Below, one piece after another: positions 4,173 to 33,556 of a DNA stretch of 64,000 nt. Made by a program: the position numbers and the translations under genes. Where the stretch lies: the IMG/VR virus record IMGVR_UViG_3300001487_000052, positions 37,503 to 101,502 of that record. One strand, 5' to 3'. Position 1 is the stretch's first letter. Each line of letters starts with the position of its first letter. This DNA comes from a virus. Taxonomy: Duplodnaviria > Heunggongvirae > Uroviricota > Caudoviricetes. The notes under the pieces were generated by a model. The model was not told the origin of the DNA. It searched no databases and saw only the letters and a program-made list of their open reading frames with translations.

Positions 4173-4200
4173 ATATTTAAAAAAAATAATAAAATTTTAT

Positions 4201-15024: not shown

Positions 15025-15068
15025 CCTGGGGTTAGTAGGAAAGAGTCATCCGGAATATTAGCCCCAGG
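15025..15068 (+). promoter_or_regulatory. 5'-leader hairpin (CCTGGGG/CCCCAGG stem, 30-nt loop) 22 nt upstream of the 15091 start
   Basis: Inverted repeat read directly in the sequence. Sits in an unusually long 360-bp noncoding gap. Confidence 0.4.
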
Positions 15069-15090
15069 TTTAAAAGAGAAAGGTAAAGAA

Positions 15091-15522
15091 ATGATTATAT
15101 ACAGACAAAAAGAATTTGCCTCGACTAAAGAAAGCAGAGAGAAAGTTAAAGAAGCCAATAAGAAAGACAAGACTAGAAAGAACTTGGAAAGAGCTCAACT
15201 AGGAACTGCTGTTGGTGGTGCTGCGACTATAATTGAAGGAAACAGGTTGAAGAAAGCAGCGGAGAAAATTGAGAAGACTATTAAAGGGAAACCTGTGGAT
15301 ATAAAGAAGGTAGAGAAAATGCAAAAACTCGGAAAAACTGCTAAGACTCTACACAAAACCGCACCTTATCTGATTGCTGCTTCTGCTGGTCTCGAGGCTG
15401 TGAAAATTGCTCGTGATATAAAGAAATCAAAGAAAAAGAAGGAGATTGTATTAGATTCTAAGGCCCCTAAGAAAATGAAGGGAAAGGAATCTAAAAGTGA
15501 TCTCCTGAAACTAGACAAATAA
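15091..15522 (+). CDS. MIIxRQKxF-family basic protein
   Basis: N-terminus MIIYRQKEFAS. Gly-zipper LGTAVGGAATIIEG. Lys-rich. Confidence 0.55.
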   Translation: MIIYRQKEFASTKESREKVKEANKKDKTRKNLERAQLGTAVGGAATIIEGNRLKKAAEKIEKTIKGKPVDIKKVEKMQKLGKTAKTLHKTAPYLIAASAGLEAVKIARDIKKSKKKKEIVLDSKAPKKMKGKESKSDLLKLDK

Positions 15523-15578
15523 ATCCTAGGCCTCTGATTCTAACATAAAGTTAAAAACCTACTACCTCTTTTATAATA

Positions 15579-15621
15579 GCATACAGGGGGAGGGGTGATA
15601 AGTTAAATTTTCCCTGTATGC
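15579..15621 (+). promoter_or_regulatory. perfect 10-bp-stem leader hairpin (GCATACAGGG/CCCTGTATGC) immediately upstream of the 15636 start
   Basis: Inverted repeat read directly. It overlaps the track-proposed ATG at 15618, which argues for the downstream start. Confidence 0.45.
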
Positions 15622-15635
15622 GTATTACAGAAAAA

Positions 15636-16571
15636 ATGATTATATTGAGGATGTTTTCTAAGAAGGGGGATAAAGAAACTGATAAAGAGAAAGTAGTCAA
15701 AGGTAGGGATATTGCGGCAGGTATTGGAATAGGTACTGCAGCTGGAATAGCAGGAGTAGCCGCTAACTCTGCATTTGGGAAAAAACTAAGGAATGCAAAA
15801 TCTATAGACCCCGAAGAAGAGAAAAAACTACGTGAAGAATTAATAAAAAAAGCGAAGAAACAAGGAACCAGGACTATAAATACTAATGCTGAAAATTCAA
15901 TGGCAGTAGGAACCTCAGAAGGGAAAGTAATAAGAAAAGCCTTAGCTAAATTAGCTAAAAAGGATAGAAAAAAGTATGAAGCCATAAAAGAAGCTACGAA
16001 ATATCCTGGAATGGATGGTGTCCTCGAACATATAGGAAAAGATCAAATAATTCTTGGAAAAGGAAGACTCTCTGAAGCGGATGTTCTCTCACATGAGTTG
16101 GGGCATACTCAATTTCTAGAAAAGGGAAGATCAAAGGATGTCATAGCAAAGACAGCTCATAGGCTTAACGCAGTTAGTAAGATGGGGACTATGGGATTAA
16201 AAAGATCTGCTGTATATGGAGCTCATGGATATGCAAATGGTTTAAAGGCCGCTAAAATGGAAAGTGAGGGCAAAAAGGAAAGCTTTGGTCATAGAATTAA
16301 GGCAGCTGGTTTGCCTGCTCTAGTTGCTGCTCCAATATTAATAGCTGAAGGTGCTGCTACTGGTAAAGGATTGAAACTCTTGAAACAGGCTGGAGTAAGT
16401 AAGAGGGCTATGAAAACTGCAAGAAAAACATTAGGAAACGCTTATGGTACCTATGCCTCAATTGCTGCAGGAAATGTTGCAGCTGGAGAAGGAGGAAGAC
16501 TAGTTGGTAAAGCAGTAGGAAAGAAACGTTACAAAAAAGAAAAAGAGAAGGAAAAAGAGAATAAGAAATAA
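15636..16571 (+). CDS. MII-family protein with an HExxH zinc-metallopeptidase-like motif and a C-terminal glycine-zipper/basic tail
   Basis: Start moved from 15618 to the in-frame ATG at 15636, giving MIILRMFSKKGDK. HELGH motif (DVLSHELGHTQF). Gly-zippers AAGIGIGTAAGIAGVAANSAFG and AEGAATGKG. Confidence 0.5.
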   Translation: MIILRMFSKKGDKETDKEKVVKGRDIAAGIGIGTAAGIAGVAANSAFGKKLRNAKSIDPEEEKKLREELIKKAKKQGTRTINTNAENSMAVGTSEGKVIRKALAKLAKKDRKKYEAIKEATKYPGMDGVLEHIGKDQIILGKGRLSEADVLSHELGHTQFLEKGRSKDVIAKTAHRLNAVSKMGTMGLKRSAVYGAHGYANGLKAAKMESEGKKESFGHRIKAAGLPALVAAPILIAEGAATGKGLKLLKQAGVSKRAMKTARKTLGNAYGTYASIAAGNVAAGEGGRLVGKAVGKKRYKKEKEKEKENKK

Positions 16572-16749
16572 TTTTCATTATTTCCATCCTCTACTAAATC
16601 CTACTGTTTCAAGAAGGATCGTGACAGGTGAAAAGTTTAATACACCATATCACTATTTTCTTGATTTTCTTCATCTTTTCAATGTTTTATTATTCTTCAT
16701 AAATAAGGCATTCGAATACCTTTGAGGCGGAATTTCTAAAATACTAAAA

Positions 16750-16797
16750 TTCCCAAGACGACCATAAGAGTCTACCCTTTAATGTGGATCTTGGGAA
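16750..16797 (+). promoter_or_regulatory. conserved structured intergenic element, copy 1 (TTCCCAAGA...CCCTTTAATGTGGA...TCTTGGGAA)
   Basis: 9-bp stem, inner mini-hairpin GACcataagaGTC, conserved loop core CCCTTTAATGTGGA. One of 3 copies with compensatory stem changes. Confidence 0.55.
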
Positions 16798-16799
16798 CT

Positions 16800-17015
16800 A
16801 TGAGAACAAGATATAGAATTACAAAAGAAACCCTCAAAACTTTAGTCCAAGGTACGGGAGGGGAGATTTATAGACTTGAAAGAAAGATCTATAAAAGAAG
16901 AAAAACTAGAACAGGTAGATATTACATGGAAGGATATGAAATAACCTCAATACATATGACCAAAGAGTATGCTGAGAAGATAGGTTTTATTAGGTATACG
17001 TCTTCTTCTGATTAA
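16800..17015 (+). CDS. small basic hypothetical protein (start probably 16800 rather than 16782)
   Basis: The ATG at 16782 lies inside the conserved hairpin element (AATGTGGATC). The in-frame ATG at 16800 gives MRTRYRITKE. Confidence 0.35.
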   Translation: MRTRYRITKETLKTLVQGTGGEIYRLERKIYKRRKTRTGRYYMEGYEITSIHMTKEYAEKIGFIRYTSSSD

Positions 17016-17030
17016 TTTAAAAACCACATT

Positions 17031-17780
17031 ATGACAATCTTAACATCACAATTACCAAGTGGGGGTTTTGGTTATACTTTCCCCACCATTAATGTAAGCC
17101 CAATGACGTTTTTAGAGCTTACACAATATCTAGAGAATGTACCAAAAGATCCTCTAGAAAAATATTTATTCGACATTAAGGTATTAGCAAAAGAAGACCC
17201 AAACATTATGAATTGTTACGTAATGGATGTGGACTTCTTAATTTTTTACCGTAAGCTATGTACAGTCTCTGGGGATCTTAGTTATGATCTCTCTGTTACC
17301 TGTCCGAACTGTGGTAGAACCCTAAAAAAGAAAATTACCCTAGACAAAGACATTCATTTTAAACAGATCGATGACAAGGTAATGACGGGAGCTATGATTG
17401 AATTAGGGGGACATAAATACGAGACTGGTGTTCCTACTGTAAATGATTTTCTTAAAGTATTCGAAAAGTACTTGAGGTATAGGAAGGTTACAGATATTAA
17501 GATGATAAAAACCATAGCCCTCATTAAAGATTTCGAATTTAACGGAAATCAAATAGAACAAGATGTATTAGGGGCAACACACGAAGATATAACCCTTCTA
17601 ATGGCTCTTCGTGATCTATATTATGACAGAGTAGAACCGATTAATATAGTATGCCCTGATTGTAAAGAGAAGGAGGAAGGAGGATTAGTGGCAGTGAGTG
17701 TAGAGAATCTCATTGTCGACTTTTTTCGAGACCTCTATAGGAATAGCCCAATTGATGGATCTAAAATTCTATTTAAATAA
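17031..17780 (+). CDS. zinc-ribbon protein (249 aa)
   Basis: CPNCGRT and CPDCKEK Cys pairs. Co-directional ORF. Confidence 0.5.
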   Translation: MTILTSQLPSGGFGYTFPTINVSPMTFLELTQYLENVPKDPLEKYLFDIKVLAKEDPNIMNCYVMDVDFLIFYRKLCTVSGDLSYDLSVTCPNCGRTLKKKITLDKDIHFKQIDDKVMTGAMIELGGHKYETGVPTVNDFLKVFEKYLRYRKVTDIKMIKTIALIKDFEFNGNQIEQDVLGATHEDITLLMALRDLYYDRVEPINIVCPDCKEKEEGGLVAVSVENLIVDFFRDLYRNSPIDGSKILFK

Positions 17781-18027
17781 GTTCCTGAAGGCTGATAACA
17801 TAGAACATTATACTCTAGCATCCCTTTATAAACTGAAAAAAGTATATGATGACTTCTTAGATAAATCCGAGGGTATAGATCCAGATTTTCCAGGCATGAC
17901 ACTAGGGGATTATGGAAAAGGAGAAAAAATCAAAGGTACTAATTATTATAGTATTTTTGGGGGAGAAGAAAATATACCAGAAGGACATAAAGGAATATTA
18001 GAAGATAGAATACAAGTAAAGAAATAA
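17755..18027 (+). CDS. small hypothetical protein overlapping the end of the upstream gene in the +1 frame
   Basis: ORF 17713-18027 in the track. First ATG-type Met at MDLKFYL. The 68-nt overlap contains a T6 run. Confidence 0.3.
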   Translation: MDLKFYLNKFLKADNIEHYTLASLYKLKKVYDDFLDKSEGIDPDFPGMTLGDYGKGEKIKGTNYYSIFGGEENIPEGHKGILEDRIQVKK

Positions 18028-18036
18028 ATATAGTTT

Positions 18037-18082
18037 TCTCGGGATGGTCTTAGAGCCTGCCCTTTGATGTGGATCCCGAGGA
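18037..18082 (+). promoter_or_regulatory. conserved structured intergenic element, copy 2 (TCTCGGGAT...CCCTTTGATGTGGA...ATCCCGAG)
   Basis: Same loop core as copies 1 and 3. Stem arms are swapped yet still complementary. Ends 29 nt before the 18111 start. Confidence 0.55.
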
Positions 18083-18110
18083 CTAAAGAAAACAGTTAAA
18101 TTACAGAACA

Positions 18111-18944
18111 ATGATTATATTAAGACAGAAACAATATTCACCTGGTTTCTCTGGCATAAAACAAGTACTTAAAAAGAATATTGATAGTGCCAGAATGAAA
18201 CTAGCTGAAAAATTAGATAAATCCATAGAGAAAGATTTAATTGAAAAGAATAGATTTGAAAATTTAGGTACGGAACTCAGTGATAGACTTAGGGAAAGAA
18301 CTATCACTACGGAAGCAGCTGAATCAGATATAGCCAAACGAATAAATTCCGGAGAAAGGATATCAAGAACTCATGCTAAGAATCCTTACATAGAAAACGG
18401 CGAACTAATTCTTCCAAATCCAATATCATCAGGGAAATTATATCATGAGATAGGTCACATAGAAAATGCTAACGGTAATAATGGCAAAATACCACAGTTT
18501 ATTAGTAAACATGGACAAACTCCAGAAAATCTTCGAGAAGTTAATGTTATGGATCTGATTAGTTCTGACTATAGATATTCAGATAGGGCTCAGCGTGAAG
18601 AATTGTTAAGAAATAACCCAGAAACATTAAAGGTGTTAAACGAATCTCTTGGAAATAAAAAACCGGTTGAATCTATAAAAAGATTTATTAAAGGAAAAAC
18701 TTTAGTAAGGGATGAGAGGAATGCTTCAAGATGGGGATTAAAGAAAACAAGAGAGAAAATAAACGACCCTGAGGTATTATCTCTTGAAGAACAGAGACAA
18801 AAAGCTGCGAACGAAACATATAATCGATCTATTTTAGCTTCCAGTAAAATACCTCTAAGGAATAGTATACAGATACCCAGTAAGAGAGGTAATTTTAAAT
18901 TTGATAAACTTAAAGAAGAGTATGATAAAAGAAACCCCAATTAA
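18111..18944 (+). CDS. MII-family protein with an HExxH metallopeptidase-like motif
   Basis: N-terminus MIILRQKQYS. LYHEIGHIEN motif. Confidence 0.55.
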   Translation: MIILRQKQYSPGFSGIKQVLKKNIDSARMKLAEKLDKSIEKDLIEKNRFENLGTELSDRLRERTITTEAAESDIAKRINSGERISRTHAKNPYIENGELILPNPISSGKLYHEIGHIENANGNNGKIPQFISKHGQTPENLREVNVMDLISSDYRYSDRAQREELLRNNPETLKVLNESLGNKKPVESIKRFIKGKTLVRDERNASRWGLKKTREKINDPEVLSLEEQRQKAANETYNRSILASSKIPLRNSIQIPSKRGNFKFDKLKEEYDKRNPN

Positions 18945-19446
18945 AGTAAGAATTTCTGGTTCAGGGAAATCCGCCAAAAAGATAATTAGTATATTAGAAC
19001 AGGGGAATATATCTGGTACTTGGATTGCAGTCTCCCCTAATGAAAAATTACCAGAGAGATATAAAGATTGTCAAGACCCAAAGGAGAATGTAGTAAGAGT
19101 ATTATATGATATTCCCTCTGATTGGTCTATATATAAAATCTCAGAGAAAGACAATGATCATGACTTGGTTGATAGTGTAATAGATGAAGTATATTCTATC
19201 CCCACTAAGAAAACAGTAAAGGAGCTCTGGGATGATTGTAGGTATCTCTGGGTTGTTATTAGTCCTGATTTAAACTATCCACAGTCTTATAACCATGAAA
19301 TCTTAAAACGAAATCAGTGGATAGAAAAAGGAGGATGGACGTTATTTTGTGTAGGCCTGGCAAATACATTAGAGGCGGAAGAAACTATTAGGGAGAAATT
19401 TAAATCCACACTTCCCCCTAATATAATCTACGAAGAAAGAACATAA
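18901..19446 (+). CDS. hypothetical protein (181 aa)
   Basis: ORF overlapping the upstream gene by 44 nt. Lies immediately upstream of the M23-domain tail protein. Confidence 0.45.
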   Translation: MINLKKSMIKETPIKVRISGSGKSAKKIISILEQGNISGTWIAVSPNEKLPERYKDCQDPKENVVRVLYDIPSDWSIYKISEKDNDHDLVDSVIDEVYSIPTKKTVKELWDDCRYLWVVISPDLNYPQSYNHEILKRNQWIEKGGWTLFCVGLANTLEAEETIREKFKSTLPPNIIYEERT

Positions 19447-19462
19447 AACAATAAAACAAAGT

Positions 19463-22400
19463 ATGGCAGAGAGCACAGATAAGAAAACTAGAAAAATTGC
19501 TGAGAAAAGAGTTGAACCAGGTAAGGAGTTTGAAAGTTATCAGGAGGCTCAAAACCAACTTTTAGCTATCCAAGCCGAACAACAACAAAATCTCGCACTA
19601 CAGGCTAATGATGCTATGAATGTACAACAACAAAATCAAACATTAGCACAGGCCGCAGAAGTTATGGCAATGGATAATCTAAACCCGGCTACACAAGGAA
19701 TATTGGCTGGGTATGGATTAAATCAGCCTAGGGTAATAAAACAAAGCAACACCCAAAGACAAGGACCCAACAACATAACCATAAACAATACTACCATAAA
19801 CAACGCTTCAGGTCCCGTTCAAGGTAGAGAAATAAGCATAAGACCACAAGAAGCTGGACAAACTAAATTTAAGGCGTGGTTAACTAATATATTCGCTAGA
19901 CAAGACGCTCAATGGCAAAAACAAAATCAAGAATATGCTAGAAGAGAGAGCTCATTGACTAGGAATTCAAATAAAATGATGAGGAAACTTGAGGGATTAG
20001 GAAAAGAGATAGGGAGTGTTATGGATCCAAGGAAAATAGCAAATACACAGAGAAACCAAATAAAAACACTTCTAACTATCATTGGGTTACCGTTATTGGC
20101 TAAATATCTCCCGAAAGTTTTTGAGAAAATTAATGGAATAGAAAAATCTGTTACTGGGTGGTTTAAGGAATTTAAGGAGAACGCAGGTGATAAAATAAAA
20201 GACTTGTTTGGCATAAAAGGAGATAAAGGAATATTAGAATCACTCCTATCGTCTCTACATAATCAAAATGAAGATGGTGTTCTTGATATAATCTTAAAAA
20301 AGATAAATGAATGGTTAACAGAGCATATAGACTTAGCCAACAAAATTTCTCCAATTAATGTTTCTCTCCTAAATCCAGGTGAATCCCTAAAATCTTTTGC
20401 TGATTGGTTATCTATTGTGTTAGGTGGTACAAAGCAAGCAAATAGGTTTGTAAACAACCAAAAGCGATTAGATTTAATAGGAGGTTTATCAGATCAAAAC
20501 AAAAAAGAAGAGGACTTCCAAGTTAGTGCGTTATCTACTGGAGAGGAGGATAAAGAAATATTTGATGGTAAAGGACATCGAATCTTAATGAATAGGAAAG
20601 AAACTAATAGAGGCTCGGCTGAGATTGACTCTAATACAAGCTCAGAACAACTCTATTCTGAATTTTCCTCCTGGGCAAGTGAAAAGGGCCTTAAACCAAC
20701 AAAAAGTAATTTAAATGAATACTTAAGGCAAAGGGATGACGTTACCTACACAGGAGAAGCCATAATTCTAACAAAAAGTGTTCATGATTCAGCAAAAAAA
20801 GGATATTTAGTTTTTTCTGATGAAGACTTGAATTTTTGGAAGGATGGAATAAGTGGAGAAAATTGGTATGGTTCACTAGCAGCATCATTAGATATAGTCG
20901 CTAATATAAAAAAAAAGTCAGTGACAATAACTAAGGAAAACCCAAGTGCAGTAAATGGGACACATAAAATTACCTCATCTAGAGAGAAAGAAAAGAGTAT
21001 ATTACCTAACAGAATTCTACTCTTGCTCAATTTACTGCTTAAGGCAGCGAAGAGATATGGTCCCCAACCAGTATTTAATTCTTTCTTAACTATGTTTTTT
21101 GATATTGGGAAGATATCTCAACTTGAAGAAGATGAAGTCTTAGTACCTCAAAAATTTAAGCTCATTAGAGAACGAATGACTGAGAATGATAGACAGAGAT
21201 ATTGGCCAAGGGGAAGGAAAGGATATTCAAATTTCTATAAAAAAATAGTAATGCAAAATGTAACTGGAAAGGCATTAAAATTAAAAGAAAAAGATTTTAA
21301 TGGAAATGAGAACAAAGATAGTTGGGAAATTTATAGAATTTCTGCCCAAGGTATCGCTAACATATTAGAGATGACAACAAAAAGTTCTGAAGAGACATAT
21401 ACTGAAGAGGCACAGAGGTGGTTAATAGATTATTTAGTTAGGAATAAAAAAGTTTCTAATCAAACCGTCACTTATGATATAGATGAAGATTATCAAAAAA
21501 CAATGGATAATATTTCAGCAGCACAGGCGGAAGAAGATCAGACCAGACTCAATTTAGCACTCACTCATGAAACTAAACAAACAGAGGGATATTCACAAGA
21601 GGATGCTAACTCCTATGTCGATTCAGGTAAATCAAAGATTAAACAAGATATACCTAGGGTTAGTTATGTAGAGAGATCTTCGGATTTCAGATCACCATAT
21701 TCTGTAACAGATGAGGAAAAAAGTAAGTCACCTAGATTAGTAATTGGTAAATCTATTAGTGGTGTAACAAAAGCTTTTGGTGGTACAGGAGCCTTAACTA
21801 GTAATTTCATGGAATGGAGAGACAGTAGGTTTCATTATGGAATCGATTTAGCAAATTCTGCTGGAGATGAAGTAAAGTATCCGGGTTACGGAACAATAAT
21901 GCAAAGTGGGAGAACTAACAAAAGTGGAACATACATTGATATAAAAGATGAACGTGGATATACTACAAGATATTATCACGCTAGACTTTATGGTGGACTA
22001 CAACCAGGTAGTAAGGTAACACCAGGACAACCAATAGGAATTACAGAAAGAAAAGGTGAGAATGGAAATTCTACTTACCCGCATATTCACGTAGAGGTTC
22101 ATGACCCAGATTGGAGCAAACAGGCTGGCAAGGAGTATCAACATAAACACTATGTAAATCCTTTAGTTTACTGGAGTAGACATAAAGCTGAGAAACAACA
22201 AGTATTACAACCCAATACTGATAATTCGCCAGATGAATCAGTAAGTATACAGCAAAATACAGGAGTCATTCCAGCATCTGGTGGTCCCGACTTCGATATA
22301 TCACCGCAAGAAGCTTTATCCCCTAAAATCAATAGCAGGGTTAAAGTTGAATTACCACATAAATTTATAGATATTAATAAAAAAGAACTAGGTTCAACAA

Positions 22401-22600
22401 ATAATAGGTCTGAAATAGAATCTCCTACTAATCAAGTTTTAGCTGCTGGATTTCAAGCAACCATAACTAATGATCAAAATGGTTATCAGATTTTATCTGC
22501 ACAATTAGCTTCAATTGAGAGTAAATTAAGTGCTATCATGGTTACTTCTGGTTCTAAACAAAAACCAAGTGCCTCTTCAATCACAACTAAAGATATATAA
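19463..22600 (+). CDS. coiled-coil tail protein with a C-terminal M23 (LytM-type) peptidase domain; tape-measure-like or virion-associated lysin
   Basis: Q/A-rich N-terminal region. M23 signatures FHYGIDLA, YYHARL and PHIHVEVHD around nt 21800-22110. Confidence 0.65.
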   Translation: MAESTDKKTRKIAEKRVEPGKEFESYQEAQNQLLAIQAEQQQNLALQANDAMNVQQQNQTLAQAAEVMAMDNLNPATQGILAGYGLNQPRVIKQSNTQRQGPNNITINNTTINNASGPVQGREISIRPQEAGQTKFKAWLTNIFARQDAQWQKQNQEYARRESSLTRNSNKMMRKLEGLGKEIGSVMDPRKIANTQRNQIKTLLTIIGLPLLAKYLPKVFEKINGIEKSVTGWFKEFKENAGDKIKDLFGIKGDKGILESLLSSLHNQNEDGVLDIILKKINEWLTEHIDLANKISPINVSLLNPGESLKSFADWLSIVLGGTKQANRFVNNQKRLDLIGGLSDQNKKEEDFQVSALSTGEEDKEIFDGKGHRILMNRKETNRGSAEIDSNTSSEQLYSEFSSWASEKGLKPTKSNLNEYLRQRDDVTYTGEAIILTKSVHDSAKKGYLVFSDEDLNFWKDGISGENWYGSLAASLDIVANIKKKSVTITKENPSAVNGTHKITSSREKEKSILPNRILLLLNLLLKAAKRYGPQPVFNSFLTMFFDIGKISQLEEDEVLVPQKFKLIRERMTENDRQRYWPRGRKGYSNFYKKIVMQNVTGKALKLKEKDFNGNENKDSWEIYRISAQGIANILEMTTKSSEETYTEEAQRWLIDYLVRNKKVSNQTVTYDIDEDYQKTMDNISAAQAEEDQTRLNLALTHETKQTEGYSQEDANSYVDSGKSKIKQDIPRVSYVERSSDFRSPYSVTDEEKSKSPRLVIGKSISGVTKAFGGTGALTSNFMEWRDSRFHYGIDLANSAGDEVKYPGYGTIMQSGRTNKSGTYIDIKDERGYTTRYYHARLYGGLQPGSKVTPGQPIGITERKGENGNSTYPHIHVEVHDPDWSKQAGKEYQHKHYVNPLVYWSRHKAEKQQVLQPNTDNSPDESVSIQQNTGVIPASGGPDFDISPQEALSPKINSRVKVELPHKFIDINKKELGSTNNRSEIESPTNQVLAAGFQATITNDQNGYQILSAQLASIESKLSAIMVTSGSKQKPSASSITTKDI

Positions 22601-22602
22601 AT

Positions 22603-23883: not shown

Positions 23884-23887
23884 TATT

Positions 23888-24193
23888 ATGTACAGAAAAA
23901 AAAATAAAATAATAACAGCTAAAAATGATCCTTCCAATTACGTTTTTGGATATGATATTTATGATTCACTCCTTTTCTCACTCATTAACGATACGACTTT
24001 AGAGCGGGAAAATCATGAAATTACTGTACATGAATATCGACCAGACTTAATTGCACAGGATATTTACGGATCTACTTCTTATCTTGGTCTTTTTCTACTT
24101 CAAGTCAAAAAACCCCTTGCTGACTTAAAGAGAGGGACTATTTTAAGTGTTCTACCAAAAACTGTACTAGATACTATAATTAAAAATATGTGA
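23888..24193 (+). CDS. hypothetical protein (101 aa)
   Basis: ORF. Its stop overlaps the next start. Confidence 0.4.
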   Translation: MYRKKNKIITAKNDPSNYVFGYDIYDSLLFSLINDTTLERENHEITVHEYRPDLIAQDIYGSTSYLGLFLLQVKKPLADLKRGTILSVLPKTVLDTIIKNM

Positions 24194-25290
24194 GTATGAC
24201 AGAAATGGTAAATACACAAAACATTTCTATAGAGTTAACTCCTTGGACTGATCAATACTTCTCTATAGATTGGCTACAGCTTAAGGAAGAGCTTGGGGGA
24301 AATCTACCTGTAGGAAAAGCATCTCTAATATTCCCAAGAAATGAAGATTCTTTAAACTTATTGCTGGAAGAAAATACAGGGAAACTCTTATTTTCAGATA
24401 ATAATGATTCAGGATTTAATTTTGAACTTCCCATCTTCATAACTTCTAGAGGATACAATGAAAATGCATTAGTAATAGATTTTACATGTACTCCCTCCAA
24501 TAAGTTTTTTGAAGAACGAATCTCTGGGACCTACGATAATATACAAAATGCCATAGAAACAGTATATCCAGGTACTCTCGATATTAGAGTAGAATCTGAT
24601 CAAAATAATGAACAAAAAATCCACCAAAACTGTGAGACGTCTTTAAACTTTCTTAGACGACTTGGGTATTCTTATAAAGCAGATACTGTTTTTGGATTTT
24701 CTTGGACAGGTTTTTTGATTAAGGATATAATAGGGACGAGTTCTACAGGGAAAGATGAAAGTATAGATGATGACCTTCCAGAGATTATTGGTGGTGGAAC
24801 TGGAAATCTCACGAACACTCAACCCTATACTCTTACCTATAGTAGAAAAGAGAACTATCCTGTTATTAATCCCTGGACCGACGAAGATAATACATTACAA
24901 GAAACATATTCTGACTATATTCCAAAAAATGTAATTTCAGTATTAGGTACAACGTATTATATTTGTCGAGCAGGGTTTGAGGATATGATTAAAAACTATA
25001 TCATAAATACTACAAAGATTAATGCTGGCTATAGCGTAAAATATTCTATTACTGGCTCTCTTATGCCAAATTCTTATAGGCTAGGAGACCTCATTAAATA
25101 TAGAAGAGCTGATGATGAAGAATATATTAATGATCCAGACTACTATACCAAGTGTTTAGTCTTTAGCAATGAAGTGTTTATAGGAAATGGTCAAGATATT
25201 GTTGGTCCTCATGGTTTTAACTTTGAATGGACTACAGAACTCAGAGGTATAGAAGAAGGACCTTGGACTAAAATTAAAGAAACAGAATAA
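24190..25290 (+). CDS. hypothetical structural protein (366 aa)
   Basis: Long co-directional ORF. Confidence 0.5.
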   Translation: MSMTEMVNTQNISIELTPWTDQYFSIDWLQLKEELGGNLPVGKASLIFPRNEDSLNLLLEENTGKLLFSDNNDSGFNFELPIFITSRGYNENALVIDFTCTPSNKFFEERISGTYDNIQNAIETVYPGTLDIRVESDQNNEQKIHQNCETSLNFLRRLGYSYKADTVFGFSWTGFLIKDIIGTSSTGKDESIDDDLPEIIGGGTGNLTNTQPYTLTYSRKENYPVINPWTDEDNTLQETYSDYIPKNVISVLGTTYYICRAGFEDMIKNYIINTTKINAGYSVKYSITGSLMPNSYRLGDLIKYRRADDEEYINDPDYYTKCLVFSNEVFIGNGQDIVGPHGFNFEWTTELRGIEEGPWTKIKETE

Positions 25291-25296
25291 ACAAAA

Positions 25297-25343
25297 TTCC
25301 CAGGACGATCTAAGAATCTACCCTTTAATGTGGATCCTGGGAA
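25297..25343 (+). promoter_or_regulatory. conserved structured intergenic element, copy 3 (TTCCCAGGA...CCCTTTAATGTGGA...TCCTGGGAA)
   Basis: Stem differs from copy 1 by a compensated A-to-G / T-to-C pair. Inner mini-hairpin GATctaagaATC is also compensated. Confidence 0.55.
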
Positions 25344-25392
25344 CAATTACCTTATATTTGAAATGAAAAAATAGAATTTCTATTAATCTATA

Positions 25393-25767
25393 ATGGACAA
25401 AAACGACTTCAGGCTTAGATTCTTGCATAAAAAATTATATCTTAAAGAATTCTCCCCTCGTGCTAATTTAGGTCTTCTTTATTACAAAAATAACAAAAAA
25501 GCAATATACTCTGTTTTGTTTAATGTAGTAAATGAAGGAAGAGAACTAATTATAAGAGATATACCAAAAACCTTAGACTTAGATCTTGATATCGCTGTTA
25601 TTGCTGTGGAGAGGCTATTAGAGTTATTAGATCCAGATATAACACACGCAATGATTAATTCATCCTGGCAATTTGAGTTTTATAGTAGAAAATTAAACTT
25701 CTATAGAAAACATCCATATTCTTGTATGATGACTTTTGAAAAATCAACAGAAGGATATGTTTTTTAA
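25393..25767 (+). CDS. hypothetical protein (124 aa), first gene of the accessory island
   Basis: ORF downstream of element copy 3. Confidence 0.35.
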   Translation: MDKNDFRLRFLHKKLYLKEFSPRANLGLLYYKNNKKAIYSVLFNVVNEGRELIIRDIPKTLDLDLDIAVIAVERLLELLDPDITHAMINSSWQFEFYSRKLNFYRKHPYSCMMTFEKSTEGYVF

Positions 25768-25939
25768 GTGGATAATCATAGTGGCCCTTATTCTTGGTTT
25801 CATAGGGGCAATAGTAAGTTTCATCCGGTTAGCAAATAAAAAAGATACCACCCCCATACAATTAATAGCTATGGCCTTGGATATTGCTTATTTTCCAGGA
25901 GGGGCCGTTCTTTTACTTTGGATATTAGGTATTATATGA
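25736..25939 (+). CDS. small two-helix membrane protein (holin-like topology; speculative)
   Basis: 67 aa with two hydrophobic helices (WIIIVALILGFIGAIVSFI; FPGGAVLLLWILGII). Confidence 0.3.
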   Translation: MKNQQKDMFFKWIIIVALILGFIGAIVSFIRLANKKDTTPIQLIAMALDIAYFPGGAVLLLWILGII

Positions 25940-26202
25940 AAATTGGTAAAGAAAGGGACTTGGTGTATATATTCCCTAAAAAGAAGGGACACAAATATTA
26001 TAAACCCGGACTAAAGGCATTCATAAAACTCTTGAATGGTAAGGTTTGTACAGGGGTTTTGTATTTTAAAGTCGACCAAAATAGGAATTTTATAGTGGAA
26101 GACCAACAATCTGCTGCACTAGACCATGAGAATATAAAACGAGCTTTTGCGACTTGGTTCTTATCTATTCCAGGGACAAATAAAATAATATGGTTAAAGT
26201 AA
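25918..26202 (+). CDS. hypothetical protein (94 aa)
   Basis: ORF only. Confidence 0.3.
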   Translation: MDIRYYMKIGKERDLVYIFPKKKGHKYYKPGLKAFIKLLNGKVCTGVLYFKVDQNRNFIVEDQQSAALDHENIKRAFATWFLSIPGTNKIIWLK

Positions 26203-26576
26203 TAATCCCAAGAAAATACGGATTATATAAAATCTACGATGAAGTAAAACAAATTGACAACACTAACCGACTCTTAATATTTAAGAAAAATATACCTTAT
26301 CTAGTATATGGTTTCTTGTTCTATTCTTGCTTTGATGATAGGATAGAGCTACTAGATTGGTTATTATACAATGGTTCAGATATAGATACTGACTTAACAA
26401 AAATATTATTATATTTCTTAAAAACAAAGGGATCTATAGCAGTAAACCTAGAAAAAACCAGGCTCGAATATGGTGATTATAAGTGGGTATCTGAACTTTT
26501 GGGTAGTGTAGAAGAAGTAGTAGAAATAACAAATAAAGCAAATATAATATGGAAACTGAAAGACTGTACTACTTAG
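26190..26576 (+). CDS. hypothetical protein (128 aa)
   Basis: ORF only. Confidence 0.35.
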   Translation: MVKVIIPRKYGLYKIYDEVKQIDNTNRLLIFKKNIPYLVYGFLFYSCFDDRIELLDWLLYNGSDIDTDLTKILLYFLKTKGSIAVNLEKTRLEYGDYKWVSELLGSVEEVVEITNKANIIWKLKDCTT

Positions 26577-27208
26577 GTGTAGTAAAAAATATAATAGAAG
26601 ATGAAGATAATGGAATAACTAAGGAATACGGAATTATAGAAGCTGATATCCCCGGTGTTATTCAAGGTATACGAGCATTTCCCAAGCGCGACGAACTTAA
26701 CGAGCCAAAGCCTGGGGATGCTATTTTATTACTCTGTCTTGACCCTATTCTTAATTCTTACTGGATTTATGAAAGAATTAAGGAGAATGATTTTATAGGG
26801 ATTAGAGCAGCAGGAAAAATGATTGATATAACTCCCGATTATATAAGCATAGGAATATTCGATAAGGACTCAGAATATAAAGAAGATGAGCGGCCTGAAA
26901 TGAAAACTTACCTGAAACTAGACTCGGAAGGGAACTTAGAAATAAAGACAGAAGGAAACACGAGTATAGAGGTCAAGGGGAATACTGAGATAAAAACTGA
27001 GGGAGATACAAATATAGAAACCTCCGGAACAACAGATATAAAATCGAATGGGGCCTGTACTATAAATTCCCCCGATGTAAAGGTGACAGGAGGAAAACTA
27101 ACTGTGAATGGTGCTGGAGTTGCTAATGGACAGGGTGGATTTTGTGGTCTTCCAAACTGCCTCTTTACTTCCGCACCTCACGTAACTAACACAATAACTG
27201 GAACTTAA
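26549..27208 (+). CDS. baseplate central spike protein (gpV / gp5-like: N-terminal OB-fold plus octapeptide beta-helix repeats)
   Basis: GVIQGIRAFPKRDELNEPKPGDAILLLCLDP resembles the gpV OB-domain pattern (vRvrfp...P-x-GD-x-VlvlF). Tandem 8-aa repeats IKTEGNTS/IEVKGNTE/IKTEGDTN/IETSGTTD/IKSNGACT. Confidence 0.55.
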   Translation: METERLYYLGVVKNIIEDEDNGITKEYGIIEADIPGVIQGIRAFPKRDELNEPKPGDAILLLCLDPILNSYWIYERIKENDFIGIRAAGKMIDITPDYISIGIFDKDSEYKEDERPEMKTYLKLDSEGNLEIKTEGNTSIEVKGNTEIKTEGDTNIETSGTTDIKSNGACTINSPDVKVTGGKLTVNGAGVANGQGGFCGLPNCLFTSAPHVTNTITGT

Positions 27209-27228
27209 TTCTGACCCTTATACCTGAG

Positions 27229-27648
27229 ATGATAAAGTACATAGGTAATGATATGTTTTTATTAGAGAAAAAAACAGAACCAATAACCTCTCTTAATCTT
27301 TTTGGTATATATCGCCTCCATAATGAATTTATAAGTGATGTAGAGGATAATATAGAAATAGAGACAAGTAAGCTAGAAGAAATAGAGGATGGACTTATAA
27401 TGCGAGTTGCTACAATATCCATAATCCTCTTACTCCGACATATAAAGCATGAAATTGTCTTTAATGAACTCTACTTATCTCAAAAACAAGCTTATCTCCA
27501 CGTACAATATGAAGATGGGATTGAAATAGAAACTAAGTTCAATGCAGGAGAAGAAGAAAGACTAATTCTTTGCTTGAAAGATAAGGATGGTTTTGAATTA
27601 AATAATATAGGTCTCAGGTTAAATGAACTCACAGAACTTATTTCCTAA
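27229..27648 (+). CDS. MIKYIGND-family protein, paralog A
   Basis: N-terminus MIKYIGNDMF. Paralog of 30249-30662, sharing MIKYIGND and (V/A)TI(S/A)IIL(L/S)LR. Confidence 0.45.
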   Translation: MIKYIGNDMFLLEKKTEPITSLNLFGIYRLHNEFISDVEDNIEIETSKLEEIEDGLIMRVATISIILLLRHIKHEIVFNELYLSQKQAYLHVQYEDGIEIETKFNAGEEERLILCLKDKDGFELNNIGLRLNELTELIS

Positions 27649-27768
27649 GTTAATCGGAATAAAGAAGTGAATTATACGAGAAGAAAAATGTCTGGAGCTC
27701 TTAGAAAGGAAACGTGGAAAATAAAAAACTAATCCCCGTAAACATCTATAACTTTAATATATACGAAG

Positions 27769-28359
27769 ATGCCATTAGTAGTTGATGATATGACACAGAA
27801 GGTTAAGAATGATATGTCTAACCTTGTCAACCAGAACATGTCAACAGATGAAGATGGGAACCAGGTATTGACAGAGGATGGGGCTAAGAATATTGCTTCT
27901 AATTCTTTACAAACACTGTGGTCTTCAATCTGTTCCTATATATCCCAAAACTCAGTTGTACAGGCTTCTTGGACTGCTACTAATCCGAATTCTGGCGTTC
28001 CCGATCCTGTAGTAGTTATAACAGGAAAAATAAACGCTATAGAAGGAACTGGATTACAACAAGCACCCCTAAAACCTTGTACAGACGCTACTTCCGCTTT
28101 ATCAATACTATCCGGACAAATGAACCTACTAATGATGACTTGGAATGTAAGCTGGGATGATCCGACTCTCCTTGTCTCTCCAGTTCTCCTCATGACTCCG
28201 CTTATAATACTCACGCCGGTAGGAGAGGGCGGAGATGGACTTGGGGATATATGTGAAAAAATAATTGAATCAGTAAAAAATACCGCCCATTATACACCGG
28301 CGTTTTCAGGTACTCATGCGGCTTTTACTGGAGGAGGAGCACTAACTTCTATAGTATGA
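27769..28359 (+). CDS. hypothetical protein (196 aa)
   Basis: ORF; Gly-rich C-terminus. Confidence 0.4.
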   Translation: MPLVVDDMTQKVKNDMSNLVNQNMSTDEDGNQVLTEDGAKNIASNSLQTLWSSICSYISQNSVVQASWTATNPNSGVPDPVVVITGKINAIEGTGLQQAPLKPCTDATSALSILSGQMNLLMMTWNVSWDDPTLLVSPVLLMTPLIILTPVGEGGDGLGDICEKIIESVKNTAHYTPAFSGTHAAFTGGGALTSIV

Positions 28360-28667
28360 TATTAAACTCAGAAAAGCTACGAAATGATCTTCATAACTCT
28401 CCGGGAATTAGAAAAAAGATATCCTGGTTAGAAAAGGTGTTAAAAGAGTTTGATAGAATTGATTGTGAGGATATAGAGATACGTCTTAGTCGATTTGATC
28501 ATTCCTTCTTCATAATTCGTATTATAACCTGGGAATATGTGGCAGTTATAAGAATAATTTCTAGGAACTTCTTTACTTATGATCTAAAACTGACAGGTGG
28601 ATCTATTACAAGTGGAGAAAGAAATACACTAAGAGAAATATGTGACATCCTGCTTCAAAACTCCTAA
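28356..28667 (+). CDS. hypothetical protein
   Basis: ORF only. Confidence 0.3.
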   Translation: MILNSEKLRNDLHNSPGIRKKISWLEKVLKEFDRIDCEDIEIRLSRFDHSFFIIRIITWEYVAVIRIISRNFFTYDLKLTGGSITSGERNTLREICDILLQNS

Positions 28668-28675
28668 AATAGGTC

Positions 28676-28939
28676 ATGGGAACTATGAAGAAAAGAAGGA
28701 TTTGGTTAGAAAAGGCAATAGAAAAACTAGAAAATGCAGGGATAGAAATTATCTGGATAAGACCTCTTAAAGACATTATCCCAGGTTTTATATTTGAAGT
28801 TAAGACAAAGAAAACAGTACTAGAATTAAGAGTCTATAGTAGGTCGAGCTGGAGAATTTATAGTACTCATAACACAACATATAGAATTACAAAATCAATA
28901 GAAGAATGCATAAAAGAAATAGAAAGTGGGAAAGATTGA
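28676..28939 (+). CDS. hypothetical protein
   Basis: ORF only. Confidence 0.3.
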   Translation: MGTMKKRRIWLEKAIEKLENAGIEIIWIRPLKDIIPGFIFEVKTKKTVLELRVYSRSSWRIYSTHNTTYRITKSIEECIKEIESGKD

Positions 28940-29166
28940 TAAAAGAAAATGGAGTGGGGAAAATAATGAAAGTGTCGGGAGATGGGTATTCTATATATTG
29001 TGAATGGATCAAACCAAACTATTACCTTATCTTCCGCAGAACACAAGATCCAGAAATTTATATAGTCCACCTTGAAATACACGGAGAAGACGATAGTGAG
29101 TTTAAAGAATTCTATCTTGGTGCTCTTAGATTACAGAAAGGAATAGTGTGGTGCGAAAAAATGTAG
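28906..29166 (+). CDS. hypothetical protein
   Basis: ORF only. Confidence 0.3.
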   Translation: MHKRNRKWERLIKENGVGKIMKVSGDGYSIYCEWIKPNYYLIFRRTQDPEIYIVHLEIHGEDDSEFKEFYLGALRLQKGIVWCEKM

Positions 29167-29372
29167 AAAAAGTGTTTATTGTGGGAGACCCTGGAGAAAA
29201 AGTAATTGGGACATTTGAAGGTGAGTATGATGTTCCAAGAGGTAGAAGGGAAGAATCAATGAAAGTACTCCTAAAAAATCTAAGAAGGCGAAACTCCTCT
29301 AATATTATAAAGAGAAAAACCACTCAACACAGCAATAAAAAAAAGAAACATGAGAACAATGACAATTATTGA
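29148..29372 (+). CDS. small EKVFIV-family protein, paralog A
   Basis: VEKVFIVGDPGEKVIGTFEGEYDVPRGRREES parallels the 29519 ORF. Confidence 0.35.
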   Translation: MVRKNVEKVFIVGDPGEKVIGTFEGEYDVPRGRREESMKVLLKNLRRRNSSNIIKRKTTQHSNKKKKHENNDNY

Positions 29373-29518
29373 TCCAGAAACAGGAGAGATTTTAACGGGA
29401 GAGATTAGTACTCCAACAGAAGAAGCATTAAAAGCTGGAAAAAGATATTACCAAAAGATGAAGAAGAAAAACAACCCTAGTCTAAAAAATCAAAACTAAT
29501 AACAAAAAAAAGAATAAC

Positions 29519-29704
29519 ATGGAAAAAGTATTTATTGTTGAGGAAACAGGAGAAAAGATAGTTGGAACGATTGAGGGTATTTATAAGGTTCCAGAAGGGA
29601 GAATAGAGGAATCCCTGAGAGAGTTCCTCAAAAAAAGAAAACAAAAACAGTTTTCTAATAAAGAAAAGAAGAAATATTTAATAAAACGAAAATCAGGAAA
29701 ATGA
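29519..29704 (+). CDS. small EKVFIV-family protein, paralog B
   Basis: MEKVFIVEETGEKIVGTIEGIYKVPEGRIEES. ATGA overlap with 29701. Confidence 0.35.
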   Translation: MEKVFIVEETGEKIVGTIEGIYKVPEGRIEESLREFLKKRKQKQFSNKEKKKYLIKRKSGK

Positions 29705-30252
29705 TGATAATATTTAGAGAAAAATTATTTAGAAGGGATGATGTTTCTGATAATGATTTAAAGCAACTACTTGATGATCCAGACCTAGTTAAAGAATACG
29801 GTCCCTCCGAGTTGATTATAATAGCTTCAAAAAAATATAATGAGGATCTGAAAAAACTAGGAATAAAAGGTAGTGCTGATAGAAACGTACTAGAAAAATT
29901 AAAAAAGGATGTAAGAAGCGGATACCTATTTAATGATGGTCCTGGAAAGGGAGATACACACCCGTTAGGAGATTTTTCTAAAAAAGATAAATCTTATGTA
30001 TTTTCTAAAAAGATATCAGAACAGCATAGATTTAACTATCGAATCTTTCCACCAAAATTAGAACTGGATGATAAAACAGGAAAACTCAGATACGGAAGAA
30101 AAGTTATATTAGTTTCTTGTTATGGCCATGAAACAGAAGAAGGGGATTATTTAAATGATAAAAATCTCCGCTCTAGGAAGAATAGAATGAGAGGAAATGC
30201 GCCTTATCGTAAATCTGAATCTATAATGAAGAAAAAGAAAAAAAATAGATGA
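29701..30252 (+). CDS. MIIxREK-family protein
   Basis: N-terminus MMIIFREKLFRR. ATGA overlap with 30249. Confidence 0.5.
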   Translation: MMIIFREKLFRRDDVSDNDLKQLLDDPDLVKEYGPSELIIIASKKYNEDLKKLGIKGSADRNVLEKLKKDVRSGYLFNDGPGKGDTHPLGDFSKKDKSYVFSKKISEQHRFNYRIFPPKLELDDKTGKLRYGRKVILVSCYGHETEEGDYLNDKNLRSRKNRMRGNAPYRKSESIMKKKKKNR

Positions 30253-30662
30253 TAAAATACATAGGTAACGATAATTTTAATGTAGATGGAGAAATAATAA
30301 AATCTACTGACTTAATCGAGGGTTGTGTGGGTTGGTATTTTAAACATGTGAGTAGCTGGCTGTGGAATGAGAAAAAACTTTGGGATCCTGAGCTAGATGA
30401 ATCTATTATCAGTCGTGTAAAAACTATTGCCATTATTCTTAGCCTCCGAACCTCATCTCCAATTTCTTACTACATAATAGACTTCCAAACACCTAGGATA
30501 TGCTATTTCAAAGTTTTATATGAAGATTACCTAGATATACGATTAACTTTTACATATGACCAAGTAAATTCGTTTTCTATGATGACCGACCCTAACTACC
30601 CTGGAGATATAATGACAATAGAAAATATAAGCATTCAAGATATAATAGAAATAATTAAATAA
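30249..30662 (+). CDS. MIKYIGND-family protein, paralog B
   Basis: N-terminus MIKYIGNDNF. Paralog of 27229-27648. Confidence 0.45.
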   Translation: MIKYIGNDNFNVDGEIIKSTDLIEGCVGWYFKHVSSWLWNEKKLWDPELDESIISRVKTIAIILSLRTSSPISYYIIDFQTPRICYFKVLYEDYLDIRLTFTYDQVNSFSMMTDPNYPGDIMTIENISIQDIIEIIK

Positions 30663-30664
30663 AT

Positions 30665-30739
30665 GGTGTGTATAGCTCAATTGGTTAGAGCTCTAGATTG
30701 TGGTTCTAGGGGTTGTCAGTTCGATTCTGACTACACACC
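30665..30739 (+). tRNA. tRNA-His (anticodon GUG) with genomically encoded G-1
   Basis: Manual fold. G-1 at 30665. Acceptor GTGTGTA/TACACAC. D-stem GCTC/GAGC. Anticodon stem CTAGA/TCTAG with loop TTGTGGT. T-arm GTCAG-TTCGATT-CTGAC. Discriminator C at 30739. CCA not fully encoded. Confidence 0.8.
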
Positions 30740-30974
30740 CAAAATAAAGATGAAGATAGGAGACTGTTTTTATCTTTTTTGTTTGCTGTGGAATGGTTTA
30801 AGGGGGTGGAGTGGTTCCCTTCGAGACGAGCGTAGCGAAGTCGAGATCCAACTCGAACTAATAAATCAAAGCTAAGTATTTTAAGCGGAACGCTTTAATA
30901 ATATAGCTTTAAATCTCTAGTTCGAATAATTACCAAGAGAGCCGCCTTCCCGGTGCCCGCCAGAATTCTATTAC

Positions 30975-31143
30975 GTTCGTTCATTCCTCACTATGTTCGT
31001 CATTACCTCACTACATAACGAATTCAACCCGGCTCTCTTTATCTTACGGGTTATCCTCGTTAAAAATTTCTTCTCGCTTCCATCCGTTGCTCGTAGCGAA
31101 ATTTTTTGGAAATCTTAACGTTTCGTTCGTTCCTCACTACACT
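30975..31143 (+). repeat. iteron-like direct repeats (GTTCGTTCATTCCTCACTA x3, degenerate) in a 530-bp noncoding region
   Basis: R1 30975-30993, R2 30996-31014 (adjacent), R3 31125-31143. A shared 9-mer CGTAGCGAA also occurs at 30832-30840 and 31094-31102. Confidence 0.45.
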
Positions 31144-31316
31144 AATTTCCAACACTCGTCCGGGAACCCTAAGATAGAAAGAAATATCCTACATAGATGG
31201 ATTAATAAAAATTGGAAATTGGAAAATATTCCTCCATATAAACCCAACAACGTTTTTAGGAATTAAAATTGGAAAAACACAGTCTAGAAAATCTTAAATC
31301 CTAATAGATGAATGAT

Positions 31317-31348
31317 GAAAGGGTACCAGTCCAGAGGTGTACCCTTTC
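31317..31348 (+). promoter_or_regulatory. perfect 10-bp-stem hairpin (GAAAGGGTAC/GTACCCTTTC, 12-nt loop) about 60 nt upstream of the helicase-like gene
   Basis: Read directly. Followed by a palindrome GTATAC-TTGGAATA-GTATAC at 31371-31390. Confidence 0.4.
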
Positions 31349-31409
31349 CAGATGATGATTATAACGTAACGTATACTTGGAATAGTATACCCTTAAAACA
31401 AATTAAATT

Positions 31410-33503: not shown

Positions 33504-33556
33504 AAACGGGAGCGACCACTTTTTAAGGAGTTTTTGATATGAAACCCTTATATATG

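Follow-up and report, generated by a model that had tools for sequence, protein, structure and literature searches.

The puf-operon and repetitive extragenic palindromic (REP) hairpins, together with intrinsic terminators, are the familiar examples of intercistronic stem-loops that attenuate transcription or stabilise messages; 5′-proximal stabilising stem-loops are known from ompA-type leaders and from the 5′ end of T7 phi10 transcripts, and start-site-sequestering hairpins from the T4 genes e, soc and 49. Here we compare with these systems three hairpins, H1 (15025-15068), H2 (15579-15621) and H3 (31317-31348), in a 64,000-nt stretch of phage DNA (positions 37,503 to 101,502 of IMG/VR record IMGVR_UViG_3300001487_000052; hereafter the window, to which coordinates refer unless a contig is named). 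H1 and H2 stand ahead of two genes of a group whose products share an N-terminal motif beginning MII (the MII genes 15091 and 15636; genes are named by their start positions), and H3 stands ahead of a helicase-like gene (31410). A preliminary description had seen in these hairpins, and in three conserved copies of another, a class of leader elements exerting post-transcriptional control over such genes; our analysis supports this interpretation in part.

Several phage and bacterial systems offer further points of comparison. Translational operators of T4 have been reviewed (PMC3014915), and the promoter-early stem-loops (PeSLs) of T4-type phages (PMC2839356, PMC4122927) have been described as terminator/promoter composites tied to indels, in which the stem-loop lies directly 5′ of a −35/−10 promoter, followed by the Shine-Dalgarno (SD) sequence and the ATG (PMC4122927). 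In the giant phage 201phi2-1, 132 termination sites vs. 67 promoters have been mapped, with many of the sites at stem-loop motifs (PMC11512511). In Acinetobacter, 200 termination sites lie no more than 35 bp from a downstream transcription start, most often at 10 bp, and the terminator DNA contributes to the promoter (bioRxiv 10.64898/2026.08.19.745784). Bacteroidetes-type initiation is tuned by mRNA structure and by an A at position −3 (PMC6847099).

Comparison with related contigs indicates that H1, H2 and H3 are real folds of the sense-strand RNA, kept by selection. GC-core hairpins of this kind form a large generic population that fills nearly every sizeable intergenic gap of the phage clade. 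The explanation that we favour, and to which we give about an even chance of being right, is that H1-H3 are ordinary stem-loops, lying between cistrons or in leaders, of a long + strand transcript of structural genes, serving as generic punctuation, with H3 specific to its gene.

Fold, stability and conservation of H1, H2 and H3

H1 (+ strand) pairs CCTGGGG with CCCCAGG in seven perfect bp around a 30-nt loop, 22 nt ahead of the ATG of MII gene 15091; H2 (+ strand) pairs GCATACAGGG with CCCTGTATGC (10 perfect bp, 23-nt loop), 56 nt past the stop of gene 15091 and 14 nt ahead of the ATG at 15636; and H3 (+ strand) pairs GAAAGGGTAC with GTACCCTTTC (10 perfect bp, 12-nt loop), with 61 nt between it and the ATG at 31410. 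The positions, stems, loops and start distances first given for the three are all present in the sequence. The G/C-tetrad core that had also been ascribed to them is true of H1, the only one of the three with GGGG/CCCC (6/7 G/C), but not of the perfect stems of H2 (6/10 G/C) and H3 (5/10 G/C), which hold GGG/CCC. The 3′ tails read TTTAAAAG, CGTATTAC and CAGATGAT, respectively. As + strand RNA, the 7-bp GC core of H1 grows to 13 bp through G·U and A-U pairs (−22.5 kcal/mol, z −4.2 vs. shuffles; −15.8 kcal/mol on the − strand), and H2 reaches 14 bp with G·U pairs (−20.3 kcal/mol, z −5.3 vs. shuffles). The energy of H3 alone is unremarkable (−13.9 kcal/mol, z −2.4), 6 of 200 shuffles folding equally well, and its support comes from the comparison with relatives.

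Inverted repeats arising by chance in AT-rich DNA, without function, would account for this last figure and also for the number of perfect stems of at least 10 bp, which as such are not over-represented (5 observed vs. 4.1 simulated with a first-order Markov model). GC-rich stems, however, exceed the simulation about eightfold (at least 10 bp with at least five G/C pairs, 3 vs. 0.38), and all three of them, H2, H3 and 60780-60830, are intergenic; with the minimum set at 7 bp and six G/C pairs, two were observed (H1 and H2) vs. 0.30 simulated. When local folding was scanned in 55-nt windows across the whole 64 kb (mean −6.1, standard deviation 3.3 kcal/mol), H1 ranked second and H2 third, both extreme outliers of stability, behind an intergenic hairpin at 4130-4172, and 10 of the 49 most stable local fold clusters were found in the 5.4% of the window that is non-coding. 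Compensatory changes in H1, in its neighbour T1 and in H2, and the recurrence of hairpins at the H3 position in six lineages (see below), already contradict a chance origin, which we regard as extremely improbable.

The gene directly 5′ of H1 has a tail-tube match (phrog_45, E 6e-9) and is split into 14228-14722 and 14881-14973 by a 158-nt group I intron at 14723-14880. Its stop is at 14971-14973, and H1 therefore lies 51 nt past the real stop; an open reading frame (ORF) at 14894-15061 that overlaps H1 is spurious. H1 is the second member of a tandem pair, the first being T1 (14982-15010, + strand; CCAGAGGG/CCUUCUGG, then TTCTATATAT; −13.1 kcal/mol, z −3.0), 8 nt past the tube-gene stop. The preliminary description had made its reading depend on conservation in related genomes, and H1, H2 and H3 are all conserved in the relatives, which are uncultured viral and metagenome contigs of up to 400 kb from IMG/VR and assembled metagenomes (L-numbers below). 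H1 occurs in three variants (window, L006 and L012; L007 and L061; L027) with identical 7-bp cores and unrelated loops, and its upper stem is kept through double changes (A-U to G-C, A-U to C-G) and several wobble pairs. T1 is kept in L007/L061; L027 has it too, lengthened by one complete pair through an insertion in each arm (CCTAGAGG/CCTCTAGG). The tail of H1 holds just TTT in the window; those of its orthologues (TTTATTTT in L027, TATTTT in L007) come nearer to a U-tract. In L010, the sole post-tube hairpin looks homologous to H1 by eye (common GGGGTTGTCT). More broadly, a stable fold after the tube gene (energy of −14 kcal/mol or lower, within 80 nt past the stop) was present in 42 of 45 distinct relatives (93%), whatever the next gene (baseplate-like, MII or other), with a mean of −19.0 vs. 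−11.0 kcal/mol in control windows; about one-third of the post-tube hairpins inspected, as counted by eye, have clear T-runs.

H2 is identical in L012 and L061, and its variant in L007 (4694-4739 of that contig) differs by a single double substitution (G-C to A-U) and by two changes that produce wobble pairs, with no pairing disrupted. The wobble pairs of H1 and H2 would be A·C mismatches on the opposite strand; with these and with all genes on the + strand, we therefore infer selection on the sense RNA. H1 and H2 almost certainly lie on the same RNA as the gene downstream, because the 22 and 14 nt that remain leave no room for a two-element promoter.

The gene content of close relatives differs exactly at hairpins, as it would if these were PeSL-like recombination boundaries of gene cassettes with only a secondary effect on expression. 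The window has the order tube-T1-H1-MII-H2-second MII; in L007, H2 stands 11 nt before an unrelated leucine-rich-repeat (LRR) gene; in L027, the MII gene has no H2 after it; and most relatives have tube-hairpin-baseplate. Furthermore, the conserved-loop element of L058 and L061 is represented in the window by a scar (15523-15536) with its breakpoint in the 3′ arm, and PeSLs are themselves terminator/promoter composites tied to indels (PMC4122927). On the other hand, H1-H3 are single-copy orthologues, not dispersed repeats able to pair, their compensatory changes with G·U pairs point to selection on RNA folding, and the full −35/−10 promoter and SD of the PeSL layout do not fit within 14-22 nt. 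We consider such a role decidedly improbable.

The case of H3 is distinct. Its sequence is not conserved; rather, six unrelated stems (window, L001/L002, L003, L004, L070 and L018/L028) stand at the same offset, with energies of −13 to −25 kcal/mol, and begin 0-12 nt past a conserved motif, which in the window is AAATCCTAATAGATGAA (CCTAATAnATGAA-type; short form CCTAATAGATGAA; 31296-31312, + strand), 4 nt 5′ of H3. This motif (consensus AA[A/T]CCT[A/G]A[A/T][T/A]nATGAA) is found 5′ of the helicase-like gene or its paralogues, is the sole strongly conserved block in the upstream alignment of that gene, and is invariant at its CCT.A...ATGAA positions in all eight loci; the window holds one exact copy, and L072 has the hairpin and not the motif. 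A CACAsT-like element lies exactly 16 nt 5′ of the motif in the window, L001, L002 and L003, and the two together look like a promoter or operator; the motif at 31296-31312 may be a promoter, an operator or the region where a small upstream ORF (uORF) starts. A second, small hairpin, H3b (31371-31390, + strand; GTATAC/GTATAC), ends 19 nt before the ATG at 31410, and L002 has a different hairpin in its place. Because of the conserved upstream motif, H3 is best read as a gene-specific leader element of the helicase-like gene; most likely, it would stand at the 5′ end of a transcript particular to that gene and act there as a 5′-proximal stabilising stem-loop or an operator.

Some further features of this leader were noted. 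In the window, L001-L004, L070, L018 and L028, the invariant ATG of the CCTAATAnATGAA motif (31308 onward in the window) is the start of uORFs 2-20 codons long, whose peptides are not conserved; several of these run through the hairpin at the H3 position. The sequence CCTAATAAATGAA was considered as a general promoter and rejected, as it recurs solely 5′ of the helicase-like gene and its paralogues. On the 3′ side of tRNA-His (30666-30740), at 30976-31142, a sequence similar to the T-arm and acceptor 3′ half of this tRNA occurs three times (TTCGTTCATTCCTCACTA and variants); the repeats look like decayed tRNA genes within a 669-nt non-coding stretch before the helicase-like gene. Pyrimidine-rich stretches akin to this region lie 5′ of the homologues in L004, L070 and L072.

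Placement before start codons and the genes that follow

To describe the geometry of such hairpins we surveyed 95 distinct strong examples in same-strand gaps of the window and its relatives. The distance from the hairpin end to the next ATG has a sharp peak at 15-30 nt (46/95, where uniform placement predicts 23.3; z 5.8). Where the gap is 100 nt or longer, 19 hairpins end 15-30 nt before the ATG vs. 8.0 expected (z 4.4), and stop-proximal placement is at chance (8 vs. 8.0). A stem that ends shortly before a start codon, first remarked in H1-H3, is therefore a real property of the clade, and hidden small ORFs do not account for the peak. H1 (22 nt) falls on the mode and H2 (14 nt) close to it; H3 (61 nt) is off the mode and H3b (19 nt) on it. 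The hairpin 3′ ends adjoin an A-rich, G/C-poor stretch from −18 to −2 (47-67% A); no SD was found in the start regions of the clade, and an A occupies position −3 in 58-67% of genes. At least five T in the 8-nt tail were counted in 17 of the 95 hairpins.

Four other hairpins of the window serve as comparators. The strongest of all (4130-4172, + strand; AAGGAGGGG/CCCCTCTTT; −24.8 kcal/mol) follows the sheath-like gene and ends 28 nt before the ATG at 4201 (not MII), and an intergenic one (58533-58568, + strand; ATGGGAGAC/GTCTCCCAT) ends 12 nt before the ATG at 58581 (not MII). The hairpin at 60780-60830 (assigned to neither strand; 11 bp with a GC core, 29-nt loop, −19.3 kcal/mol) sits exactly between two convergent genes, where only a 3′-end role is possible. 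The last (33556-33585, + strand), 52 nt past a stop and 30 nt before an ATG, is the one canonical terminator-like hairpin with a T-run (TGTTTTGTT). Genuine strand switches are too few for convergent and divergent junctions to be compared as indicators of a 3′ vs. a 5′ role.

The anchoring of the clade's hairpins to start codons, and the position of H1 and H2 at 22 and 14 nt before MII genes, would suit dedicated leader elements that exert post-transcriptional control, by processing or translational repression, on the MII class and the helicase-like gene. So stated, the claim would imply a dedicated regulatory layer for N-terminally tagged virion-region proteins, which the data do not support. 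The 28 distinct MII-family genes of the window and its relatives are mostly packed tightly in the tail/virion region: six of the nine in the window have an upstream gap of no more than 18 nt or overlap the preceding gene, and gaps below 25 nt, too short to hold a hairpin, precede 82% of the 28 vs. 67% of other genes; MII and other genes do not differ significantly in gap size or upstream folding (Fisher p 0.20 and 0.10, respectively). The same kind of hairpin is found ahead of the non-MII genes 4201, 33616 and 58581 and of baseplate-like genes in relatives, and H2 itself precedes a different gene in L007 and is missing from L027. The dedicated-leader proposal gains something from an AUG at 15618-15620, paired inside the 3′ arm of H2 and in frame with gene 15636 in the window: were it sequestered, translation could come to depend on the hairpin's melting. 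Its counterpart in L061 and L007 is out of frame and begins a uORF of 6-7 codons that ends at, overlaps or ends just past the main start. When we tested for sequestered starts, this upstream AUG was paired in H2 and the MII starts and their A-rich leaders were unpaired, no hairpin covering an annotated start or an A-rich leader. Nor do H1-H3 have a common loop or flank sequence that a shared regulator might recognise, and their proposed membership of a broader class with the three conserved copies fails, the invariant apical sequence of the latter being missing from H1-H3. We conclude that H1-H3 are not regulators specific to the MII-tagged family, and we find it improbable that they are dedicated leader elements of the MII class and the helicase-like gene.

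The MII genes merit a description of their own. Nine otherwise dissimilar proteins of the window begin MII/MIV-x-R-Q/E-K-x-F/Y (gene starts at 607, 1017, 6008, 6836, 8044, 15091, 15636, 18111 and 29701), and this start may be a shared N-terminal targeting or processing tag. Three of these proteins (15091, 15636 and 18111) were searched against Pfam and PHROG and gave no matches; the 15636 protein is of low complexity.

Start-codon anchoring could also reflect promoter-coupled terminators, in which the hairpin ends the upstream transcript and a compact, overlapping promoter starts the next one ~10 nt downstream, such that the hairpins would not be in the downstream leader. The short distance to the ATG is fixed even for hairpins with T-runs (window 33556-33585; L004 8175, L024 265, L031 10756), the arrangement has its precedent in Acinetobacter (bioRxiv 10.64898/2026.08.19.745784), and the H3 motif with its fixed 16-nt spacer looks promoter-like, though it lies 5′ of the hairpin. 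However, no conserved element of the −10/−7 type is found between hairpin and ATG; intergenic DNA shows no meaningful enrichment of TAnnTTTG, TATAAT or TATAAATA (ratios 1.3-1.4); a scan for sigma-70-type promoters was at chance (83 vs. 78.5); and the 14 nt past H2 would leave essentially no leader. We therefore judge promoter-coupled termination unlikely. Separately, AATCCTA was tried as an intergenic signal and rejected: 4 of its 9 + strand copies in the window are intergenic, with no generalisation across relatives, and it is partly hairpin-arm or scar sequence.

In the explanation that we favour, that of ordinary intercistronic and leader stem-loops, the hairpins would punctuate a polycistronic RNA, attenuating or partly terminating transcription and blocking exonucleases or otherwise protecting RNA ends, and transcripts that encode abundant proteins, the tail tube among them, would then build up. 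The downstream cistron would then start behind a stable 5′ structure that leaves a ribosome landing zone of ~20 nt unpaired, with each hairpin placed as near the next cistron as an unstructured, SD-less landing zone allows. We propose a role on the 3′ side because the strongest hairpins follow the sheath-like and tube genes, one stands at a convergent junction, T-runs accompany many of the orthologous hairpins past the tube gene and 201phi2-1 provides a precedent; a role on the 5′ side, whether as a protected or insulated 5′ boundary or as a compact promoter overlapping the hairpin, would be at least as important because of the start-codon anchoring.

A number of observations weigh against this explanation. 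Anchoring to the start codon rather than to the stop is not what a pure terminator predicts, and agrees no less well with a 5′-side role or with a promoter that overlaps the hairpin. Of the features of a canonical intrinsic terminator, the GC-rich stem is present, but the loop of ~3-8 nt and the U-tract (at least 5 T in 8) are not: the loops measure 12-30 nt, or ~15-18 nt in H1 and H2 once G·U pairs have lengthened the stems; U-tracts are absent from H2 and H3, and the window copy of H1 falls short of one. Our terminator scan returned 2 canonical terminators vs. 10.3 in shuffles and called none of H1-H3. Position weight matrices of the hairpin flanks are A-rich upstream and A/T-rich downstream, with no consensus motif; because there is neither a flank motif nor an enrichment of the promoter consensus sequences named above, transcript boundaries cannot be placed. 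Finally, the geometry survey used crudely called ORFs, the related contigs in it are not independent, and every functional step of the punctuation account is deduced from sequence.

Nevertheless, these well-supported RNA structures, with their compensatory changes, would serve as markers of transcript boundaries in a phage clade without cultured representatives. The rule that hairpins end ~20 nt before SD-less starts can help gene-start and operon annotation, and it constitutes a testable design principle for SD-independent translation.

Conserved-loop hairpins, neighbouring genes and relatives

The three conserved copies with which H1-H3 had been grouped (family-1; 16750-16797, 18038-18080 and 25297-25343 in the window) are a different element. 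Further copies are found in L001, L002, L003, L007, L018, L024, L028, L043, L046, L049, L058, L060 and L061; at least 15 distinct copies have an apical CTACCCTTYRATGTGG-type block with no more than three substitutions, and no such sequence occurs in the loops of H1, H2 or H3. The outer stem of family-1 shows compensatory changes at all 9 pairs, as counted on a supplied structure (RNAalifold missed the outer stem, three sequences being misaligned). We also observed at least three further families with conserved loops (..TGGTATTCGATTACA, ..TAGTTTGAATGTAC and ..ATAAGACTTTTACTATTCGATTAG), of which the ..TAGTTTGAATGTAC and ..ATAAGACTTTTACTATTCGATTAG families mostly end ~20 nt before an ATG, often followed by ACTAAA. 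The scar at 15523-15536, TCCTAG joined to GCCTCTGA, is that of a family-1 element with its breakpoint inside the 3′ arm; L061 has a loop module inserted at the scar site, and L058 a complete family-1 element after the same MII gene.

Taken together, the start-anchored hairpins and at least four invariant-loop families with covarying stems raise the prospect of a phage-specific cis-regulatory RNA code, which we regard as rather doubtful. In such a code, the hairpins would serve either as structural insulators, setting the landing zone of ribosomes that initiate independently of an SD, or as recognition sites for a phage RNA-binding protein, endonuclease or hairpin-dependent polymerase that sets temporal or stoichiometric expression, and H1-H3 would be its loop-unspecific members.

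The window is part of the genome of an uncultured jumbo myovirus of the gut or rumen. It is AT-rich (~35% GC), has nearly all genes on the + strand up to ~60.8 kb, and encodes a divergent myovirus tail module, in which the 1714-4110 product has a weak tail-sheath match and the 17031-17780 product is T4-baseplate-like. No cultured relative was found by megablast of 14-20 kb against phage genomes or by tblastn of the tube protein, and human faeces are the source of the phage records matched by the helicase-like protein. An HNH/homing-endonuclease-like gene (4201-5250; phrog_559, E 2e-47) comes immediately after the sheath-like gene with its strong hairpin. Between 58 and 64 kb, the GC content climbs to 38-41% and the GC skew flips, which suggests the end of the + strand tail module; this region includes a − strand gene (60835-62832) for an SPFH/Band-7 domain protein. 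In-frame TAG codons within the baseplate-like gene of L034 (~6700-6760) and L035 (~4200-4260) suggest that TAG has been reassigned in part of the clade; the window itself has long intact ORFs under the standard code.

The intron of the tail-tube gene has recognisable P/Q/R/S core elements; U is the last base of the exon and G that of the intron, and the RF00028 model scores 40.6 bits (gathering score 50; E 2e-9 in a local search). The intron is not in L006 or L007 and is present in L058; longer tube-gene matches suggest that it may also be present in L012, L027, L029 and L055, and related elements occupy other positions in L031, L037 and L059. At 158 nt, it would rank among the smallest natural group I introns.

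Comparison with known systems

RNase III sites of the T7 type consist of ~20 bp of near-continuous double-stranded RNA, and hairpin promoters of the N4 type have a 5-7 bp stem, a 3-nt loop and a conserved sequence recognised in DNA. Both were ruled out for H1-H3, whose stems are 10-14 bp, whose loops are 12-30 nt and which have no stem sequence common between sites. No hairpin matched Rfam at the gathering score. With E values up to 5 allowed over 14700-18150 and 30600-31450, Rfam returned nothing credible, with no match at H1 or H3 and, antisense to H2, one weak match to a miRNA family (17 bits vs. a gathering score of 171).

The sequestering hairpins of T4 resemble H2 in lying near a start, the 3′ arm of H2 also holding an AUG, but differ in that the family-conserved starts and A-rich leaders are outside the stems here. 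With PeSLs, the locus has in common intergenic stem-loops of the G-loop-C kind, at which close relatives have gained, lost or exchanged small genes; gene content differs 3′ of H2 and at the conserved-loop element. The PeSL layout, in contrast, is not found, as only 22 nt (H1) and 14 nt (H2) separate hairpin and ATG, with no SD and neither enrichment nor consensus of promoter sequences. Promoter-coupled terminators (bioRxiv 10.64898/2026.08.19.745784) likewise place a termination hairpin ~10-35 bp from the next unit in tandem genes; they differ in that no recognisable promoter element is found here. The start regions of the phage follow the SD-less, A-rich, A−3 pattern of Bacteroidetes initiation (PMC6847099).

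The closest likenesses are with the two commonplace kinds of element. H1-H3 share with 5′-proximal stabilisers a stable hairpin 5′ of an unstructured ribosome-binding stretch, and H3-position hairpins begin 0-12 nt past a promoter-like motif; H1 and H2 differ from such stabilisers in that their gaps follow an upstream gene, and they may be internal to a polycistronic RNA. Intercistronic terminators, attenuators and stabilising stem-loops have the same GC-rich stems in short gaps between co-oriented genes, and here too the most stable ones come after abundant structural genes (sheath-like, tube), one lies between convergent genes and some relatives have T-runs; the differences are that the hairpins here mostly have no U-tract, have long loops, and are positioned according to the downstream start. 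In their action, H1-H3 would resemble intercistronic stabilisers or attenuators and 5′ leader hairpins, both of them well known.

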